A stretch of 64,000 nucleotides of DNA from an uncultured Clostridia bacterium (GCA_944387425.1 CALXEV010000003.1:662-64661), one strand, 5' to 3'; shown: positions 38,661 to 45,794, numbered from the stretch's first letter. Program-made: numbers and translations. The notes: generated by a model from the sequence alone, not told the origin.

Positions 38661-38689
38661 TTGACAAACATGAAATATGATGTTAACAT
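38661..38689 (+). promoter_or_regulatory. Promoter of the sortase / TasA-like locus
   Basis: TTGACA lies at 38661-38666, then a 17-nt spacer, then TGtTAACAT at 38681-38689. Confidence 0.5.
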
Positions 38690-38780
38690 AGTTATAGATT
38701 TTAATCAAAAAATTAATTCAAATAATTTTTTCTAAAAATTATCAAATTAACAATTAAATAAAAGAGGTGATAGTAAATCT

Positions 38781-39362
38781 ATGTTTAAATTTACTAGAAC
38801 TGGTGTAAATCTTATTAGTTTTTTCATATCGTTATTCATATTTATATTAATTCAAATTTTCATTAATCAATATATCAATGGAATAAAAATGAATGTAGAA
38901 TTAGGTCAAGAAATTATGCAAAAACAAGAAAATGTAATATCAGAGCAAGAAAAAATACAAGAAACTCCAGTCGAAATATGGCAGATAGAAATCGAAAAAA
39001 TATCACTTAAAGCCAATATAGCAGAAGGAACAACTCAAGAAATTTTAGAACAGTATGTTGGACATTTTTCAGAAACACCTAACGAATTAGGAAATGTTGG
39101 ACTTGCTGCACATAATAGAGGATATCCTGTAAATTATTTTGAGAGACTTAAAGAAATTCAAGAAGGTGACAAAATAATATATAGGCATAATGATTTTGAA
39201 AAAATTTACGAAGTTACCAAAAACAAAATAATAGAAGACACAGATTGGGAACCATTAGAAAACACTGAAGAAAATATGTTAACACTTATAACATGTGTAG
39301 AAAACGAACCTAGTTATAGAAGATGTGTACAAGCAGTTGAGCTTGAAGAAAACCAAAGTTAA
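38781..39362 (+). CDS. Sortase-family transpeptidase (second copy), membrane anchored
   Basis: It has an N-terminal TM helix, the His context GLAAHNRG, the TLITC cysteine motif and a conserved Arg (YRRCVQA). Confidence 0.8.
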   Translation: MFKFTRTGVNLISFFISLFIFILIQIFINQYINGIKMNVELGQEIMQKQENVISEQEKIQETPVEIWQIEIEKISLKANIAEGTTQEILEQYVGHFSETPNELGNVGLAAHNRGYPVNYFERLKEIQEGDKIIYRHNDFEKIYEVTKNKIIEDTDWEPLENTEENMLTLITCVENEPSYRRCVQAVELEENQS

Positions 39363-39440
39363 TAATTCCTAAGCAAAAGCGAAGGATTATTATATAAATT
39401 CATATTTTTCTAAAAAACAAAAATAAAGGAGGAATAATAT

Positions 39441-40028
39441 TTGAAGAAAAAAAGCAAAAAACTAATTGGACTATTAGGTATAGCATTAATAGTTCTAACA
39501 TTATGTGTAGGAGGATATACATATGCCAAATACAGAACAGAAGTAAAAGGAGGTGGACAAGTAGACATAGCCAAATGGTCATTTAAAGTTGACGAAAGTA
39601 GTCAGAAAATTGAAACAATCAATTTAAGCGATACTGTTGATGAAACATTATTAGTTAATGGAAAAGTAGCTCCAGGAACAAAAGGAGAATTTACAATTGA
39701 TATTGATGGAACTGGAACAGAAGTAGGAATTAATTATGATGTAAATTTTGCAAATGAAATAAATAAACCAACAAACTTTGTTTATACATATAATGGAGAA
39801 AAATTCAGTTCATTAGCAAAAGTAGCTGAAAAATTAAAAGGTAGTATATTAGCTAATGATGAAGTAAAAACCAAAACACTTACAATAGGATGGCAATGGG
39901 ATTATGAAACAGGTGAAGAAAGTACTGAAATAAATAAAAATGATGTGATAGATACACAAGAAGGAATAGCAAATTTAGATTACACATTTGATGTAATTGT
40001 AACAGGTACACAAATGCCAACAGAATAG
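39441..40028 (+). CDS. Exported TasA/camelysin-like (SipW-type N-terminus) protein, P1
   Basis: It has a TTG start after an aaggagg SD. The N-terminus is MKKKSKK + TM + GGYTYAKYRTE, resembling the GGGT(F/Y)A(Y/F)F motif. It shares the segments VAPGTKGEFTIDI, LTIGWQWDYE and YTFDVIV with P3. Confidence 0.55.
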   Translation: MKKKSKKLIGLLGIALIVLTLCVGGYTYAKYRTEVKGGGQVDIAKWSFKVDESSQKIETINLSDTVDETLLVNGKVAPGTKGEFTIDIDGTGTEVGINYDVNFANEINKPTNFVYTYNGEKFSSLAKVAEKLKGSILANDEVKTKTLTIGWQWDYETGEESTEINKNDVIDTQEGIANLDYTFDVIVTGTQMPTE

Positions 40029-40138
40029 TAATTAAATAAAAAGATTTAGAAAAATATGAAAAAATCAAAAAAGGAGGAAAAAGAAATATAAAATTTATAA
40101 AGAAAAACAAGAAAATAATTCTAATAATTTCAGTAGTA

Positions 40139-40588
40139 TTGATAATTTTTGCATTATTTTGTTTGAAAATAGCATTTGCTAAATTTAAAACAGAAGAAAT
40201 TTTTAATAAAAATCTGGATATTGCAACACCAATATTTATAGTTGAAGGCAATGACAGCACAAAAATCAGTGCAATAAACAACATAGGATATTATGAATTT
40301 AAAGTAAAAAACTTTAATGAAAATCAAATAAGTGAAACTGGTTTTGAATATACAGTAGAGGTAATTGCAGATACAGATGAATCAATAAAATTTGAACTAT
40401 ACAAAGATAATGAACCAATAAAATTAGAAAATTTAAAAAGTGAACAATTAATACTACCAGGAAATGAAAAAACAGAACAAAATTACAAATTAAAAGTAAT
40501 TTACGACAAAAATTTAGGTACTAAAGGAATAGATATCTTAAAAGAAATACAAGTTAAAATTCATTCAGAACAGGGCAAAATAGGATAG
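40139..40588 (+). CDS. Exported protein P2 of the same locus; true start unresolved (frame open from 40040)
   Basis: The track start is the TTG at 40139. The upstream in-frame sequence encodes ..KRNIKFIKKNKKIILIISVVL, which completes a signal peptide ending AFAKFKTEE. No in-frame ATG, GTG or TTG lies near the aggagg at 40072-40077. Confidence 0.5.
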   Translation: MIIFALFCLKIAFAKFKTEEIFNKNLDIATPIFIVEGNDSTKISAINNIGYYEFKVKNFNENQISETGFEYTVEVIADTDESIKFELYKDNEPIKLENLKSEQLILPGNEKTEQNYKLKVIYDKNLGTKGIDILKEIQVKIHSEQGKIG

Positions 40589-40595
40589 TGATGTT

Positions 40596-41180
40596 ATGAA
40601 GAAGAAAATCTATATTATAATAATAATTTTAATTCTAATATTTATAATCCTTAATTTTTATAAATCTAATAAAAACATAATTAATGATATTATGATTTTT
40701 GATCTATGGGAAGATATTGGTATAAAAACTCATAAAGAAAATAATCAAAACACATATGTAATTAATCCTGTAAAACAAGATAATATTCAAATTGATGTTT
40801 ATAAAACAATACAAAATTCTTATGAAGTAAAGGAGGTTATAGATAATTTACAGGGAAATAAAATATATAAAAAAATAGCACCAGGAAGTTATGGGAACTT
40901 TTTAATAAAATTAGAAAGACCATTTAATTCTAAATGCAATATCATAGTAAATGATTTAAATTCTAAACCCGAAAATTTAGTTTTTATATTAGATAATAAA
41001 CAATATAATTCAATAAAAGAAATGCAAAATAAATTGAATGAAATCTTCCAAGTTCAAAATGCAGTTTTAATTCAGTGGGAATGGAAATATGAAAATACAC
41101 AAGAAAATAATTTACAAGATACATATGATGGCGAAAATGTAGAAAACTACAAATTTGAAGTAAAAGCTATAATTGAATAG
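40596..41180 (+). CDS. Exported TasA/camelysin-like protein, P3 (paralogue of P1)
   Basis: It has an N-terminal TM helix. IAPGSYGNFLIKL, LIQWEWKYEN and YKFEVKAII parallel the P1 motifs. Confidence 0.55.
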   Translation: MKKKIYIIIIILILIFIILNFYKSNKNIINDIMIFDLWEDIGIKTHKENNQNTYVINPVKQDNIQIDVYKTIQNSYEVKEVIDNLQGNKIYKKIAPGSYGNFLIKLERPFNSKCNIIVNDLNSKPENLVFILDNKQYNSIKEMQNKLNEIFQVQNAVLIQWEWKYENTQENNLQDTYDGENVENYKFEVKAIIE

Positions 41181-41193
41181 CAGAAAGGAAAAT

Positions 41194-42723
41194 ATGAAAT
41201 TAAAAAAGATAATTATAATAGTATTAATAGCAATTGCAATAATCAATATAAATTCAAAGGTTTTTGCTAAATATGTATTTGAATATACTGAGAAAGCTGC
41301 AATATTGGAAATCGACAGAACTGCTCCAGTTCTAGAAATTATATATTCGACTAAAGATATAACATCTGGTGATGTAGAAGTAAAAATTGTTGCTAATGAA
41401 AAAATACAGGAACTTGAAGGATGGAAACTATTAGATGATGGCAAAACATTAGTAAAGATATATAGCAAAAATCAGGCGGAAAAGGTCATTATTAAAGATT
41501 TAAGTGGAAATGAAACAGATGCCAATATAATAGTAGACAATATAGATAAAGAACCACCAACTGCACAGATTATAAATATTATAAATACTAATAATGGTTA
41601 TGAAAATTATGCTAATAAAACACATAAAATTACTATTAATCTAAAAGTTCAAGATAATAAAAACTTAATTGAACACAATCAAAATTTAAAAATATTTGTT
41701 GGAACAAAAGAAGAAGTATATACAAAAGAGATTAAAGTTTTAGAAGAAAAAGAAAGTTATATAATTTATGAAATACAATTAACAAATGTTTTGGAAAATG
41801 GTAAACTAACATTAGAAGTTTTAGAAAACAGTTATCAAGACAAGGCTGGAAATATGATTTCAAAAACTATACTAGACACAGGAATAACTATTGATAATAT
41901 AAAACCAGAAATTTCATTTCAGCAAAAAAAATTAGATAATGGAAAAATTTTAGCGATAATTAATAGTAATGAAAAAATAAGAGAACCTAATGGATGGAAT
42001 ATAAGTAATAACCAAGATAGTGTTTCAAAAGAATTTATATCAGATATTCAATATGTAAAAGAAATAACTGACTTAGCTGGTAATACAACAATTACAAATG
42101 TTGAAGTAAAAGGAACAACATATTTAAACCTAGAATGTTTAGCACATATTTCAGAAAAAGGTTGGGTAAAAATGCAAGATAATTTTGTAGGAACTATAGA
42201 TCCAACAAACCTGATAAAAATAGAAAGTTTAGCATTTAAAATAAATAATCAAATTCCACAAGATATCTTAAAAGCTTCAGTATTCTCATATACATATTGG
42301 GGAGAAAATTCTTCTGCAAAATCACCAAATACAGGTCTTGTATTTAATTATGGAAAAAATCCAGAAAATGGTTACAAAACAATGGCTAATTCAGAGTTAG
42401 CAATTATTAATGGAGAACAATATATGCAACTAGGATTAGATGGAGCAAATAAGGTAGAATTAACAGATATTAACGGAAACAATCCAATCCCTGCAGGAAT
42501 TGCAAAACAATATTTATATGGTATTTCAGGAATAAGTTTAGAACTAGAAGATAGTGAAAATTCGATAATATATCAATTATATTTTAATGATATAGGATGG
42601 TCGAAAATTTATAAAGATGGAGAAAATGCAAGTATTGCAAATAATAAAATAATAGAAGGACTCCGAATTGCTGTGGTTCCTAAAAGTGAAGTAGAATTTG
42701 TAATTAATGAATGGAGTAAATAG
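41194..42723 (+). CDS. Large exported protein P4: SipW-type N-terminus, Ig-like repeats, C-terminal ChW-like repeats
   Basis: The ATG at 41194 (MKLKKIIII) follows an aaagga SD. The TM helix is followed by VFAKY. Repeat modules have the form DRTAPVLEI..GW..DLSGNET and DNIKPEIS..GW..DLAGNTT. The C-terminal segments AHISEKGWVKMQDNFVGT..IESLAFKI and NDIGWSKIYKDGENAS..IEGLRIAV resemble clostridial hydrophobic-W repeats. Confidence 0.6.
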   Translation: MKLKKIIIIVLIAIAIININSKVFAKYVFEYTEKAAILEIDRTAPVLEIIYSTKDITSGDVEVKIVANEKIQELEGWKLLDDGKTLVKIYSKNQAEKVIIKDLSGNETDANIIVDNIDKEPPTAQIINIINTNNGYENYANKTHKITINLKVQDNKNLIEHNQNLKIFVGTKEEVYTKEIKVLEEKESYIIYEIQLTNVLENGKLTLEVLENSYQDKAGNMISKTILDTGITIDNIKPEISFQQKKLDNGKILAIINSNEKIREPNGWNISNNQDSVSKEFISDIQYVKEITDLAGNTTITNVEVKGTTYLNLECLAHISEKGWVKMQDNFVGTIDPTNLIKIESLAFKINNQIPQDILKASVFSYTYWGENSSAKSPNTGLVFNYGKNPENGYKTMANSELAIINGEQYMQLGLDGANKVELTDINGNNPIPAGIAKQYLYGISGISLELEDSENSIIYQLYFNDIGWSKIYKDGENASIANNKIIEGLRIAVVPKSEVEFVINEWSK

Positions 42724-42791: not shown

Positions 42792-43127
42792 ATGGAATCA
42801 AGCAATATGAAAAATATAGTTGTGTTAAAAAAACTTCCATCTAATATTATAGATGAAGCTATTATAATTCTAAAAGAAACTTCAAAGGTTAGACAAAAAG
42901 AATTGATTGACAAAGGTGCTAAAACCAATATTGATGAAAGGCAAAGTAAGTCAAAAGATTATATACTAAAAGAAGCTGAAATGCTTGTAACAGATTATAT
43001 CAATAAAATAGAAAAAGGTAAGCAATTACCAGCCTTAAATTTAACTAAAAAATATAATATCTTAAAAAAATATAGTATTATTTCAACTTCACTTTTAATT
43101 ATCAGTTTAATAATAAATTTCATATAA
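42792..43127 (+). CDS. Hypothetical tail-anchored protein (111 aa)
   Basis: It has an aaaggag SD, a soluble N-terminal part and a single C-terminal TM helix (YSIISTSLLIISLIINFI). Confidence 0.5.
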   Translation: MESSNMKNIVVLKKLPSNIIDEAIIILKETSKVRQKELIDKGAKTNIDERQSKSKDYILKEAEMLVTDYINKIEKGKQLPALNLTKKYNILKKYSIISTSLLIISLIINFI

Positions 43128-43207
43128 TAACATAAAACACTTTATACATGCATACATTTAAACAAGTGCATTATAAAGTGTTTTTATTAATTTGTATGGA
43201 GGAAGTT

Positions 43208-44140
43208 ATGGAGAGAGTACTATCAGTTGAAGATAAAATAAGAAGAGCAGAAGAAAGATATTATAGTAAAAGAGAAGGAAATATTCCTGTAGTAAAAAAG
43301 GAAAAGAGTAAAAAAGTGGAAAAAAGGGTAAAAAAATTAATTAAGCAAATTATAATCTGTTTAATTATATATGGAATATTTTACTTAATAATAAATAATG
43401 ATTCTATATTTTCAAAAGATTTTACCAATAAAGCCAGAGAAATTTTAGAACAAGACATAAACTTTGGTGAGTGGTATTCTGCGTTTATTACAAAAATTAA
43501 CGAAATTACAAAAAAGGAAGAAAATGATGGTTCACAAGAAAACAATGCAGAAAACAATGAGGAAAACTTACAAAATAATGATGAAAACATAGGTGGAGCT
43601 ATAGAAGATTTGACTCAAGACAATGTAACTGCACAGTCTGAAATAACCAATCAGCCAGAAACAACTGCGCAACAGCCAGAAGCAATATCATCAGAAACAG
43701 AACCACAAACTGAGTTAAGCCAAATGGAACAGGATGCAAATTATATAAAAAGTACAATTAACTTTATTAAACCAGTAGAGGGAACGATAAGTTCTGAATA
43801 TGGACTTAGAAACCCAACAACACCTACAGTTCCTAAAAATCATACTGGAACAGATATTGCTGCAGTAACAGGCACCAAAATAGTTTCAGCAACAGATGGA
43901 AAAGTGATTTTATCTTCATCAGAAGGAGATTTCGGAAATCATTTAAAAATACAAGTTAATGATGTTATTATTGTATATGCTCATTGTAATAAACTATATG
44001 TAAAAGAAGGAGACACAGTAGTACAAGGACAAGAGATAGCAGAAGTTGGCTCAACTGGTAATACAACAGGACCTCATTTACATTTTGAAATTAGATATCA
44101 AGATAGATATGTTGATCCACAACTTATATTAGAATTATAA
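43208..44140 (+). CDS. M23 (LytM-type) metallopeptidase, membrane anchored, SpoIVFA-position
   Basis: HTGTDIAA and GPHLHFEIRY are present. It has a TM helix and an acidic linker. It lies directly upstream of an M50 site-2 protease. I prefer the ATG at 43208 after ggagga. Confidence 0.85.
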   Translation: MERVLSVEDKIRRAEERYYSKREGNIPVVKKEKSKKVEKRVKKLIKQIIICLIIYGIFYLIINNDSIFSKDFTNKAREILEQDINFGEWYSAFITKINEITKKEENDGSQENNAENNEENLQNNDENIGGAIEDLTQDNVTAQSEITNQPETTAQQPEAISSETEPQTELSQMEQDANYIKSTINFIKPVEGTISSEYGLRNPTTPTVPKNHTGTDIAAVTGTKIVSATDGKVILSSSEGDFGNHLKIQVNDVIIVYAHCNKLYVKEGDTVVQGQEIAEVGSTGNTTGPHLHFEIRYQDRYVDPQLILEL

Positions 44141-44158
44141 AAAAGCAAAGCTAAAATT

Positions 44159-44185
44159 TGTCATAAAGGACCGTCCCTGTGACAA
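44159..44185 (-). repeat. Dispersed 28-nt hairpin element, copy B (inverted)
   Basis: The + strand reads ttgtcataaaggaccgtccctgtgacaa. Its reverse complement, ttgtcacagggacggtcctttatgacaa, aligns with copies A and C. Confidence 0.7.
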
Positions 44186-44205
44186 AAAAGAAAGAGAAGG
44201 GGAAA

Positions 44206-44853
44206 ATGAGAGTTAGAATAGATTTAAAAATAATAATTTTTTTACTTTTATTTTGTTTTACCAAGCAGATTGATATATACTTAACAATTATGTTTTTCTG
44301 TGTTATACATGAATTAGGACACATAATTGTAGGATTGTTACTAAAAATGAAACCAGAAAGGCTAGAACTAATGCCATATGGATTGACAGTTTCTTTTAAA
44401 GTAAATATAAATGATTTAAATAAAAAAATAAAAAAAGGCACTCTACTAGAACTTAAAAAAATAATTGTTGCGTTTTCTGGACCATTACTTAGTTTAGCTT
44501 TAGCAATAATATTTTTGTATATAGACCCAATTTATATAACTAAACAAGATGCAGTTTATTCAAACATATTAATTTTACTTTTTAATTTGTTACCTTTATA
44601 TCCATTAGATGGTGGAAGAATATTAAAAAGTTTATTACATATAGAATTTGGTAGTCAAGAAGCTAAAAAAATAATTAATATAATATCAAATATAGTAATA
44701 ATAATGTTAACAATAGTTGCAAGTATTACTGTTTATTATTTTAAAAACATAGCAATATTTTTAATTTGTATATTTTTGTGGATTATAACAATTCAAGAAA
44801 ATATAAAATTTAAAAATGAAACAAAAATATATGAAATGATTAAAAATAGTTGA
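44206..44853 (+). CDS. M50 site-2 metalloprotease (SpoIVFB-like, no CBS domain)
   Basis: HELGH and the NLLPLYPLDGGRIL motif are present in a multi-TM protein. I prefer the ATG at 44206 after gaagggga. Confidence 0.8.
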   Translation: MRVRIDLKIIIFLLLFCFTKQIDIYLTIMFFCVIHELGHIIVGLLLKMKPERLELMPYGLTVSFKVNINDLNKKIKKGTLLELKKIIVAFSGPLLSLALAIIFLYIDPIYITKQDAVYSNILILLFNLLPLYPLDGGRILKSLLHIEFGSQEAKKIINIISNIVIIMLTIVASITVYYFKNIAIFLICIFLWIITIQENIKFKNETKIYEMIKNS

Positions 44854-44900: not shown

Positions 44901-45794
44901 ATGTTAGATTTAGATAAATTAAAAAAATGTACAATATGTCCACATAAGTGTGGGACTGATAGAACAAAAAATATAGGAAGATGTAAATCAACTGATAAAG
45001 TAAAAATAGCTTTATATTCAACACATAATTTTGAAGAACCATGCATAAGTGGAGAAAAAGGTTCAGGAACAATATTCTTTTCTAATTGTAATTTGAATTG
45101 TGTATTTTGCCAAAATTACGAAATAAGTCAACAAGGAAGAGGAAAAGAAATTGAAATAGAGGAATTAGCTGAAATAATGCTTAAGCAACAAGAAAAAGGA
45201 GTAGAAAACATAAATTTTGTAACACCAACAAGCTACTCTATTCAAATAAAAGAAGCCATTATTATTGCAAAAGAGAATGGATTAAAAATTCCAATAGTGT
45301 ATAACACAAATGGATATGAAAATGTGGAAACACTAAGAGAATTAGAAGGTTTAATAGATATATATTTGCCAGACTTAAAGTATTACTATAATTCTTTAGG
45401 AAAGGAATTTTCAAAAGTAGATAATTATTTCGAAATAGCAACTAATGCAATAAAAGAAATGTATAGACAAGTCGGAAGACCAATATTAAATGAAAAAGGT
45501 GTAATGCAAAAAGGACTAATGGTCAGACATTTAATATTACCTAATAACATTGAAAACAGTAAAAGGTGTTTAAAATGGCTAAAAGAAAATTTTAATGATA
45601 AGATTTATATAAGTTTGATGGCGCAGTATTTTCCTACATATAAGGCAAAAGAAATAAGTGAAATAAATAGAAAACTTACGCCAAAAGAATATGAAGAAAT
45701 TGAAAACTATTTATATGATTTAGACATTGAAAATGGATATATTCAAGAATTAGGAGAACATGAAGAAGAATATGTTCCAAAATGGGAATATTAA
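44901..45794 (+). CDS. Radical SAM protein, PflX/PflA-like activase family
   Basis: The CNLNCVFCQNY cluster motif is present, with an N-terminal Cys pair (CTICPHKCG). Confidence 0.85.
   Translation: MLDLDKLKKCTICPHKCGTDRTKNIGRCKSTDKVKIALYSTHNFEEPCISGEKGSGTIFFSNCNLNCVFCQNYEISQQGRGKEIEIEELAEIMLKQQEKGVENINFVTPTSYSIQIKEAIIIAKENGLKIPIVYNTNGYENVETLRELEGLIDIYLPDLKYYYNSLGKEFSKVDNYFEIATNAIKEMYRQVGRPILNEKGVMQKGLMVRHLILPNNIENSKRCLKWLKENFNDKIYISLMAQYFPTYKAKEISEINRKLTPKEYEEIENYLYDLDIENGYIQELGEHEEEYVPKWEY

Follow-up and report, generated by a model that had tools for sequence, protein, structure and literature searches.

TasA-like exported proteins and a sortase at one locus of an uncultured Clostridia bacterium: probably two independent surface modules

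Genes and features of the locus

The window analysed here, a stretch of 64,000 nucleotides from an uncultured Clostridia bacterium, carries on its plus strand a sortase gene followed by five genes referred to as P1 to P5. Ahead of the sortase gene lies a sigma-A-type promoter-like site (38661-38689, plus strand; TTGACA-17-TAACAT, 10 of 12 matches, with an upstream TG). An earlier note on this DNA placed a single promoter at this position, and the site is indeed the top plus-strand match between 38500 and 45000; however, promoter-like sites of this kind are not enriched in this AT-rich region, numbering 59 against 48 +/- 6 in shuffled sequence. From the promoter-like site to position 45000, no terminator-like site was found on the plus strand. 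Since none separates the sortase gene from P1, the two may be co-transcribed in this genome.

The sortase gene (38781-39362, plus strand) encodes a membrane-anchored protein matching PF04203 (E 8e-22; 77.8 bits, the cut-off being 26.6; profile positions 1-122 of 125), and its catalytic residues, the His of LAAHN, the Cys of TLITC and the Arg of YRRC, can be read directly and are all intact, as the earlier note had claimed. The protein is class D-like while falling under every class cut-off, its best scores against the NCBIfam sortase class models being about 63 bits where the cut-offs are 140-165. Thus, it remains below both class D models (NF033746, 53.9 against 165; NF058671, 64 against 140) and does not reach the class C, pilin-specific model (63 bits against 160). 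The nearest solved structure is 4D70 (E 4e-12), which was deposited as a 'sortase family protein' and which we take to be SrtD of Clostridium perfringens.

Behind the sortase gene and a spacer (39363-39440, plus strand), P1 (39441-40028, plus strand) encodes a putative major fibre subunit with a basic N-terminus, a transmembrane helix, the sequence GGYTYA-KY with a predicted SipW cut between A and K, and a beta-sandwich. P2 (40056-40588, plus strand) encodes a small subunit related to P1 (phmmer E 1e-4). Its frame is open from 40040. Since an A-run at 40067-40072 is A6 in this assembly, as opposed to A7 in conspecific assemblies, the ATG at 40056 falls into another frame; P2 is intact, at 177 aa, in three of the four conspecific assemblies, the fourth (L097) having ATA as its start codon. 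P3 (40596-41180, plus strand) is a paralogue of P1 with an N-terminal transmembrane segment and no A-K(Y/F) junction. In P4 (41173-42723, plus strand), a SipW-type junction (VFA-KY) precedes a strand-like segment that is disordered, a run of three or four Ig-like domains and, at the C-terminus, a ChW-like domain. P5 (42792-43127, plus strand), a 111 aa protein with a C-terminal transmembrane segment, accompanies the locus solely in the subclade that has M23 and M50 genes downstream.

Exported proteins with SipW-type junctions

The P1 family is large, comprising 4369 cluster representatives (50 % identity, E<=1e-3), and no model in Pfam or NCBIfam describes it. The paralogy of P1 and P3, first noticed from shared motif pairs, held up in a search of all 4094 ORFs of the genome (phmmer E 1.6e-6 and 5e-7), and the motif pairs themselves align with each other. 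Equally well founded was the observation that P1, P2 and P4 have a transmembrane segment followed by (Y/F)A-K-(Y/F), as the junctions YTYAKY, AFAKF and VFAKY are present here and conserved in relatives; in this genome, P1, P2 and P4 are their only carriers. In alignments of P1 and P4 homologues, both the Lys directly after the predicted cut and the aromatic residue at mature position 2 are invariant (K33 and Y34 of P4 across 39 homologues), and the P2 junction is kept in relatives as G(Y/F)SM(A/G)K. By contrast, just two of 73 P3 homologues have the junction motif. A regular-expression scan and direct reading found no C-terminal sorting signal (LPXTG plus hydrophobic tail) in any of P1 to P4, in agreement with the earlier note.

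The likeness to TasA and camelysin that the note had proposed, to be checked by structure prediction and profile searches, was borne out in part. An AF2 model of P1 (pLDDT 75), in which residues 24-42, after the predicted cut, are disordered in the monomer, finds TasA at ranks 1-3 in Foldseek (E 4.6e-4 to 1.7e-3, probability 0.97-1.0), the best being 5of2/5of1 (E 4.6e-4, probability 1.0); the structural match is nonetheless weak, with TM only 0.33-0.36 overall and 0.35 for the best. In hhalign, the P1 family aligns with clostridial Peptidase_M73 proteins such that the transmembrane helix and GGxTYA-KY fall over the G-ATMA-WF of canonical GGATMAWFT signals (probability 85.6 %, E 5.5e-6), and a greedier alignment extends into the mature domain (149 columns, E 1e-4, probability 56 %). 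What did not stand is membership at the level of sequence models: PF12389 (Peptidase_M73) finds nothing in P1-P4 at E<=0.1, with a genome-wide maximum of 12.6 bits, TIGR04088 (the NCBIfam model for the SipW-cognate signal) has no match at E<=0.1, P1 belongs to none of the TasA, CalY and BsaA models of Pfam and NCBIfam at that threshold, and a profile search of the PDB returned no TasA. Based on Foldseek, the junction alignment and strong genomic linkage to SipW in relatives, P1 to P3 appear to be exported proteins of the TasA type that bear SipW-type N-termini. For P4, the Ig-like modules that had been read from the sequence are confirmed by a structure model (pLDDT 91) whose Foldseek matches are strings of Ig domains. 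The proposed ChW-like repeats fared less evenly: Pfam ChW does not match P4, yet residues 436-512 align with the repeat units of genomic paralogues (BLASTP E about 1e-6), and the one paralogue that was scanned, C27, matches PF07538 at E 4e-130.

The only SipW-type peptidase of the genome lies on another contig (C22; TIGR02228, 86 bits), so there is none in the window, just as the earlier note had stated. Across 61 genomes of the same family, SipW co-occurs strongly with the P1 family, being present in 21 of 22 genomes with P1 vs 7 of 39 without it (Fisher p=1.8e-9), and in 17 of the 22 the two are no more than 3 kb apart. In five species (L061, L068, L069, L073 and L077) sipW sits between P1 and P2, and the two copies that were scanned, those of L061 and L068, exceed the TIGR02228 cut-off; in the genus studied here, the gene is unlinked to the P operon.

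Deletion of the TED gene beside the sortase

Thioester-domain (TED) adhesins with sortases of their own are known from streptococci, for example Cpa, and the usual partner of the present sortase is of this kind, consisting of a TED, SpaA-type stalk domains and an LPxTG motif and being encoded beside a dedicated sortase. Unlike a canonical cell-wall sorting signal, its LP(V/I)TG has one further residue before the stop: each of the 13 complete TED genes read terminates in LP(V/I)TG(M/R/Y)-stop, and neither a hydrophobic segment nor a basic or otherwise charged tail follows the motif or is encoded downstream in any frame. A sortase orthologue occurs in 58 of the 61 same-family genomes, whether or not P1 is present (association p=1.0), and a TED gene adjoins it in 52 of the genomes surveyed. 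About 37 genomes have the sortase without any P1 homologue, and TED is adjacent in most of them.

Where Srt-TED does adjoin the P operon, as in 13 of 82 fetched loci, it does so in two different arrangements. In close relatives TED stands between the sortase gene and the P operon (Srt-TED-P1-P2-P3-P4), and five relatives (L009, L010, L013, L015 and L029) share the order RsmH-FtsL-HD(-)-Srt-TED-P1..P5-M23-M50. Alignment with L004, L009 and L010 indicates that the sortase-P1 spacer of the window is homologous to the TED-P1 spacer of these relatives, and hence that the TED gene was lost cleanly. The usual neighbour of the sortase has thus been deleted in this species, and three independent conspecific assemblies, as well as one sister species, show the junction without TED. 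A TED paralogue ending in LPVTGY is encoded on contig C13 of the same genome. The fallback offered in the earlier note, that the sortase acts on substrates encoded elsewhere, is supported.

A probable donor-strand fibre and a sortase with its own partner

Taken as a whole, the locus is probably best explained as two independent surface modules, P1-P2-P3-P4 on the one hand and the sortase on the other, with P1 to P4 likely forming a SipW-processed donor-strand fibre and the sortase serving a TED adhesin encoded elsewhere. On this reading, the P genes are a conserved operon belonging to a TasA-like branch of exported proteins that lacks annotation. P1, P2 and P4 would leave the cell by Sec, with cleavage between the small residue at the end of G-(Y/F)-(T/S)-(Y/M)-(A/G) and the K-(Y/F) behind it, the cutting enzyme presumably being the genome's single archaeal-type signal peptidase, of the SipW type, on its other contig. 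The freed N-terminal strand (K-Y...) may then slot into the beta-sandwich of the following subunit, giving a P1 fibre by donor-strand complementation as in TasA, BsaA and AbpX. P3, which keeps its N-terminal transmembrane segment without a cut site, is a candidate membrane-anchored base or nucleator. P4, with a donor strand but no acceptor domain, followed by an Ig-like stalk and a ChW-like end, may cap the fibre, serving either as its tip adhesin or as a wall anchor. The sortase is the family-wide partner of the TED adhesin ending in LP(V/I)TG plus one residue; the loss of TED left it directly ahead of P1, and its most likely substrate is the paralogue on C13.

Several characterized systems resemble parts of this arrangement. 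The tapA-sipW-tasA system of Bacillus subtilis (PDB 5of1/5of2, 8aur) likewise has an exported beta-sandwich subunit, in this case the protein that the P1 model matches best in structure, a transmembrane segment followed by a G-x-T-aromatic-A junction, a dedicated archaeal-type signal peptidase and an accessory protein for anchoring or nucleating the fibre. However, neither Peptidase_M73 nor TIGR04088 matches P1-P4 at the level of sequence, an invariant K-(Y/F) comes after the junction in place of the A-F-N-D of TasA, there are four subunit genes, and sipW is unlinked in this genus. In C. perfringens, a sortase gene, srtB, flanks the TasA-like matrix operon sipW-bsaA-bsaB-bsaC, whose main subunit also lacks LPXTG, and in experiments has proved dispensable for BsaA polymers (PMC7395162; 10.1101/2024.11.04.621531). 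There, sipW is in the operon, whereas here it is absent from it, and the sortase is divergently oriented with a BsaB-like LPXTG partner in most strains, whereas the partner here is the deleted TED adhesin. The AbpA, TafE and AbpX fibres of archaea and bacteria, which are donor-strand fibres of the TasA superfamily, are comparable in their co-localized TIGR02228-type peptidase and N-terminal amphipathic donor strand, although the SipW seen here is of the ordinary short form; their loci also encode a tip adhesin and a membrane anchor, and the aromatic residue at mature position 2 agrees with the 'aromatic clamp' at that position in AbpX-type donor strands (10.64898/2026.01.04.697558). Finally, the Elr pilus of Enterococcus faecalis combines donor-strand exchange, a primer anchored in the membrane, a tip adhesin and anchoring that depends on a sortase (10.64898/2026.10.17.759780), a layout like that proposed for P3, P1 and P4. 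Yet, its proteins belong to different families (WxL, DUF916), its base subunit has an LPxTG whereas P1-P4 have none, and a sortase link is here unsupported by co-occurrence.

An unlikely alternative is that P1 to P4 are SipW substrates that form no fibre, being instead monomeric or oligomeric wall-associated proteins, e.g. a ChW-anchored adhesin complex, that share only the jelly-roll fold of TasA. The weak structural match (TM 0.35) and the want of a sequence model would fit this, as would the fact that the P1 N-terminal module also begins large surface proteins of many domains that carry Flg_new or GLUG repeats, where it may be a simple anchor. Against it stand the conserved four-gene layout, which includes one major subunit, one paralogue lacking the cut site and one large donor-only protein, together with the disorder of the N-terminal strand in the P1 model, the invariant aromatic at mature position 2 and a dedicated SipW, which is typical of the donor-strand fibres of this superfamily (10.64898/2026.01.04.697558). 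Extremely improbable is the main idea of the earlier note, that the sortase takes the place of SipW and processes or polymerizes P1-P4 in some uncharacterized way, and it is largely refuted by comparative data. In its favour, the sortase gene opens the cluster and sipW is missing from the window. Against it, a SipW is encoded in this genome, relatives carry sipW within or next to the operon, P1-P4 lack any sortase motif, the presence of the sortase is unrelated to that of P1 (p=1.0), and the present gene order came about when the real partner gene of the sortase was deleted. That the sortase stands where SipW normally does, and so marks a new variant of assembly, is not supported, and the combination named beforehand as refuting the idea, sipW at the locus in relatives with sortase adjacency not conserved, is what was found.

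The remaining question is whether the modules act as one. Sortase-P1 linkage among genomes with close P1 orthologues exceeds chance expectation, with the sortase within 3 kb of P1 in four of nine genomes, the four belonging to different genera, and with two different arrangements in which it stays near the operon; this counts against the two-module reading. The sortase might then covalently join the tail-less TED adhesin, or the fibre, to a P-protein, possibly using as acceptor the Lys exposed after the Ala-Lys cut, to yield a donor-strand fibre with a sortase-ligated thioester adhesin or wall anchor. In favour are the adjacency of Srt-TED to the P operon in the 13 loci and in those four of nine genomes, the invariant Lys right after the predicted cut, a TED sorting signal without a membrane-retention tail, and the precedent for a pilus uniting donor strands and a sortase (10.64898/2026.10.17.759780). 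Even so, such a machine is improbable. Srt-TED is maintained in most of the sortase-bearing genomes that have no P1 homologue, so the sortase needs no P protein as acceptor; of the 22 P1-bearing genomes, only four have the sortase no more than 3 kb from P1, and 18 keep it elsewhere; the K-(Y/F) junction is conserved equally where no sortase is near; and the neighbouring sortase of C. perfringens has no effect on BsaA polymers (PMC7395162). A conserved class C sortase beside the subunit genes, a trait of sortase-assembled Gram-positive pili, is not seen here.

P1-P4 and the sortase are most likely a variant of known systems, unannotated yet widespread. In a broader and very improbable formulation, the P1 family would be a class of donor-strand fibres not described before, processed by SipW and widespread in gut Clostridia. 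P3 would form the membrane base and P1 the shaft, P4 would be a cap that only donates a strand and ends in ChW, and wherever Srt-TED adjoins, the sortase would ligate the tail-less LPVTG TED onto the Lys-first N-terminus of a subunit. If true, this would be the first fibre to join non-covalent strand exchange to a sortase-attached, covalent-binding tip.

Organization and history of the locus

Between 38.6 and 44.9 kb of the window, the genes all run in one direction. The sortase ORF (Srt; 38781-39362, +) is followed by those of the exported proteins P1 (39441-40028, +), P2 (+, in a frame that is open from 40040 and closes with the stop codon at 40588), P3 (40596-41180, +) and P4 (41173-42723, +). 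Next come P5 (42792-43127, +), a protein of 111 aa whose C-terminus has a TM segment; a gene resembling M23 peptidases (43148-44140, +); and one for an M50 site-2 protease (44179-44853, +). Both mraZ-rsmH-ftsL and a divergent HD-domain gene lie 5' of the sortase. The window comes from a MAG of 1.4 Mb and 97% completeness, whose relatives are uncultured gut Clostridia, e.g. Clostridium sp. CAG:575. The last three genes (42792-44853) accompany the operon in one subclade only, and the M23/M50 pair is reminiscent of spoIVFA-spoIVFB. The promoter that the earlier note placed at 38661-38689 is present as a pattern; however, it is statistically undistinctive in such AT-rich DNA (G+C 23-30%).

Close relatives have the order RsmH-FtsL-HD(-)-Srt-TED-P1-P2-P3-P4-P5-M23-M50, in which TED is a thioester-domain adhesin, and in three other relatives Srt-TED is located past M50. 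Within the window, the TED gene is missing between Srt and P1, the 78 nt that separate Srt from P1 are homologous to the relatives' TED-P1 spacer, and the same TED-less junction occurs in three independent conspecific assemblies and one sister species. The TED-P1 spacer of one relative (L004:7930-8000) holds TTGATA-16-TATAAA, and the matching bases of the window (39363-39440) have decayed to TTATTA ... CTAAAA, so that expression of P1-P4 in the window's species may rely on the sortase promoter.

P2 lacks an in-frame start in the window because the A-run at 40067-40072 is A6. Its counterpart is A7 in four conspecific assemblies, in three of which the ATG at 40056 opens an intact 177-aa P2 (MKKSKKGGKRN...), the fourth (L097) having ATA at that start codon. 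A programmed -1 frameshift at A_AAA_AAG was rejected given these A7 runs and the three intact ORFs; the A6 is either a miscall in the homopolymer or a variant of this strain, and is no evidence of programmed frameshifting.

A conserved four-gene module linked to SipW

The paralogy of P1 and P3 asserted in the earlier note is borne out (E about 1e-6), with the quoted motif pairs lining up in the alignment, and P2 is a more distant P1 paralogue (E 1e-4). As had also been described, the N-termini of P1, P2 and P4 pass from a basic segment through a TM helix to YTYAKY, AFAKF and VFAKY, respectively, and a C-terminal sorting-signal scan of P1-P4 found no LPXTG-type signal; VTGTQxP at the P1 C-terminus was rejected as a sorting signal, being the last beta-strand. 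Pfam and NCBIfam scans of P1-P5 returned no family, the sole match being a weak VCBS repeat, and a profile search recovered many unnamed P1 homologues (4369 cluster representatives at E<=1e-3). The order P1-P2-P3-P4 is near-universal across 80 species-level loci and four from metagenome contigs. Large surface proteins, the longest of 3136 aa, likewise begin with the P1-type module of signal, A|KY junction and beta-sandwich (e.g. P0168, P0201, P0217 and P0226). Three such proteins with Pfam matches (570-957 aa) carry Flg_new/InlB-type B-repeats or GLUG motifs, and LPXTG is absent from all five full sequences read.

The central proposal of the earlier note, that a sortase stands in for the archaeal-type signal peptidase SipW, is not supported. 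The window indeed has no SipW gene; however, the genome encodes a single SipW-type peptidase on another contig, C22, and it is to SipW that P1 is linked, the sortase being independent of it. Across 61 genomes of the window's family, 22 have the P1 family, and a SipW-type peptidase is encoded in 21 of these, compared with 7 of the 39 P1-less genomes (Fisher p=1.8e-9), with the P1 and SipW genes <=3 kb apart in 17 of the 22. Orthologues of the window's sortase, by comparison, occur in 58/61 family genomes with no association with P1 (p=1.0). In five species an archaeal-type signal peptidase gene even lies between P1 and P2, and a scan of two of these copies gave 75-80 bits for TIGR02228 (cut-off 52). 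P1-P4 are a conserved module tied to SipW rather than to sortase, and the window's genus is exceptional only in where its SipW gene is placed. On C22 (L001:1-3420), that gene is flanked on one side by a two-component system and on the other by the gene of a 177-aa membrane protein, a long way from the presumed substrates. The A|K-(Y/F) junction, the predicted SipW cut site, is confined within this genome to P1, P2 and P4, which makes these three the obvious candidate clients of the C22 enzyme.

The sortase does not do SipW's job, and the apparent oddity of the locus is gone. Among nine genomes with close P1 orthologues, the sortase does lie <=3 kb from P1 in four different genera, in some of which SipW is also near the pair. 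This proximity could reflect inherited synteny or a functional tie, and a hybrid model in which the sortase would join the TED adhesin, or a fibre itself, to a P protein is therefore retained, albeit as a very improbable one. The precedent of Clostridium perfringens speaks against a role in polymerization, as the sortase that flanks sipW-bsaABC there is dispensable for BsaA polymers (PMC7395162; 10.1101/2024.11.04.621531).

Resemblance to TasA and a proposed division of labour

The likeness to TasA suggested in the earlier note shows, weakly, in the structure model of P1 but not in sequence models. P1-P4 are unmatched by PF12389 and the NCBIfam SipW-substrate models, a PF12389 search of the whole genome gave nothing significant, and the profile of the P1 family, run against the PDB, found no TasA, only a chance-level fimbrial match (E 0.9). 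By sequence, P1-P4 are not TasA-family members. On the other hand, the AF2 model of P1 is a beta-sandwich (pLDDT 75; residues 24-42 disordered) whose best three PDB matches are all TasA (E 4.6e-4, prob 1.0), although the TM is only 0.35. In profile-profile comparison, the P1 signal peptide and junction pair with canonical clostridial Peptidase_M73 signals (GGxTYA-KY versus G-ATMA-WF, prob 85.6%); a greedier alignment, for which the P1 profile was made more diverse, spans 149 columns and pairs the APGT hairpin with the NPGD hairpin, but at a prob of only 56%. The invariant aromatic of the P1 family at position 2 after the predicted cut matches the 'aromatic clamp' that AbpX-type donor strands have, and dedicated TIGR02228 peptidases are typical of the AbpX/TasA superfamily (10.64898/2026.01.04.697558). 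Because of the matching signal and junction, the top structural match, this aromatic and the typical SipW, we interpret P1-P4 as a putative divergent branch, one that would work like TasA, BsaA and AbpX.

The cut-site motif is present in just 2 of 73 P3 homologues, which retain the TM segment and P1-like domain; because of this combination, P3 may be a membrane-bound acceptor or nucleator. P4 has the invariant K-Y junction and then a disordered segment, lacks a P1-like domain, and continues as Ig-like domains (model pLDDT 91), for which Foldseek returned generic Ig-domain strings only. Its C-terminal region aligns with the ChW repeats of genomic paralogues (PF07538 E 4e-130 in the one scanned), the ChW assignment in P4 resting solely on that similarity. 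Since it would thus offer a donor strand without an acceptor domain, followed by Ig-like and ChW-like regions, P4 is a putative donor-only cap, acting as tip adhesin or wall anchor. TapA, archaeal tip-and-anchor loci (10.64898/2026.01.04.697558) and the Elr pilus (10.64898/2026.10.17.759780) offer parallels to these proposed roles.

The sortase and its adhesin partner

The sortase is, as first described, intact in its His, TLITC and Arg (PF04203, E 8e-22). It scores under every NCBIfam class cut-off, and the nearest solved structure is PDB 4D70, which we take to be C. perfringens SrtD. The genome has three sortases; the two others adjoin their own substrates with ordinary tailed signals, LPKAG and LAYTG at C10:23506-25513 and LPKTG at C33:6993-8763.

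A TED gene lies next to the sortase orthologue in 52 of the 58 sortase-bearing family genomes. All 13 complete TED partners read (C13:19316-20962, -, locus L006; L004:6881-7921; and 11 other loci) share one ending: a Pro/Glu/Lys-rich linker, LP(V/I)TG, a single further residue (M, Y or R) and then the stop codon. None of them has the hydrophobic stretch or the charged tail with which a canonical sorting signal continues. A hidden tail past the stop was considered and rejected, none being encoded in any frame. The paralogue on contig C13 of the window's genome stands alone, has two SpaA-type stalk domains and ends in KLPVTGY; it is the best candidate substrate of the window's sortase. The fallback of the earlier note, namely that the sortase acts on substrates encoded elsewhere, is supported.

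Both the P1-P4 family and the sortase-adhesin pair are variants of known systems, not new principles. The former is a large and so far unannotated family of TasA-like surface proteins in uncultured small-genome gut Clostridia, recognizable by its A|K-(Y/F) junction. Its four genes keep a conserved layout, from which a concrete, testable fibre model of base, shaft and cap follows. The latter is family-wide and, with a signal of only LP(V/I)TG plus one residue, calls into question the textbook requirement for a hydrophobic retention tail.
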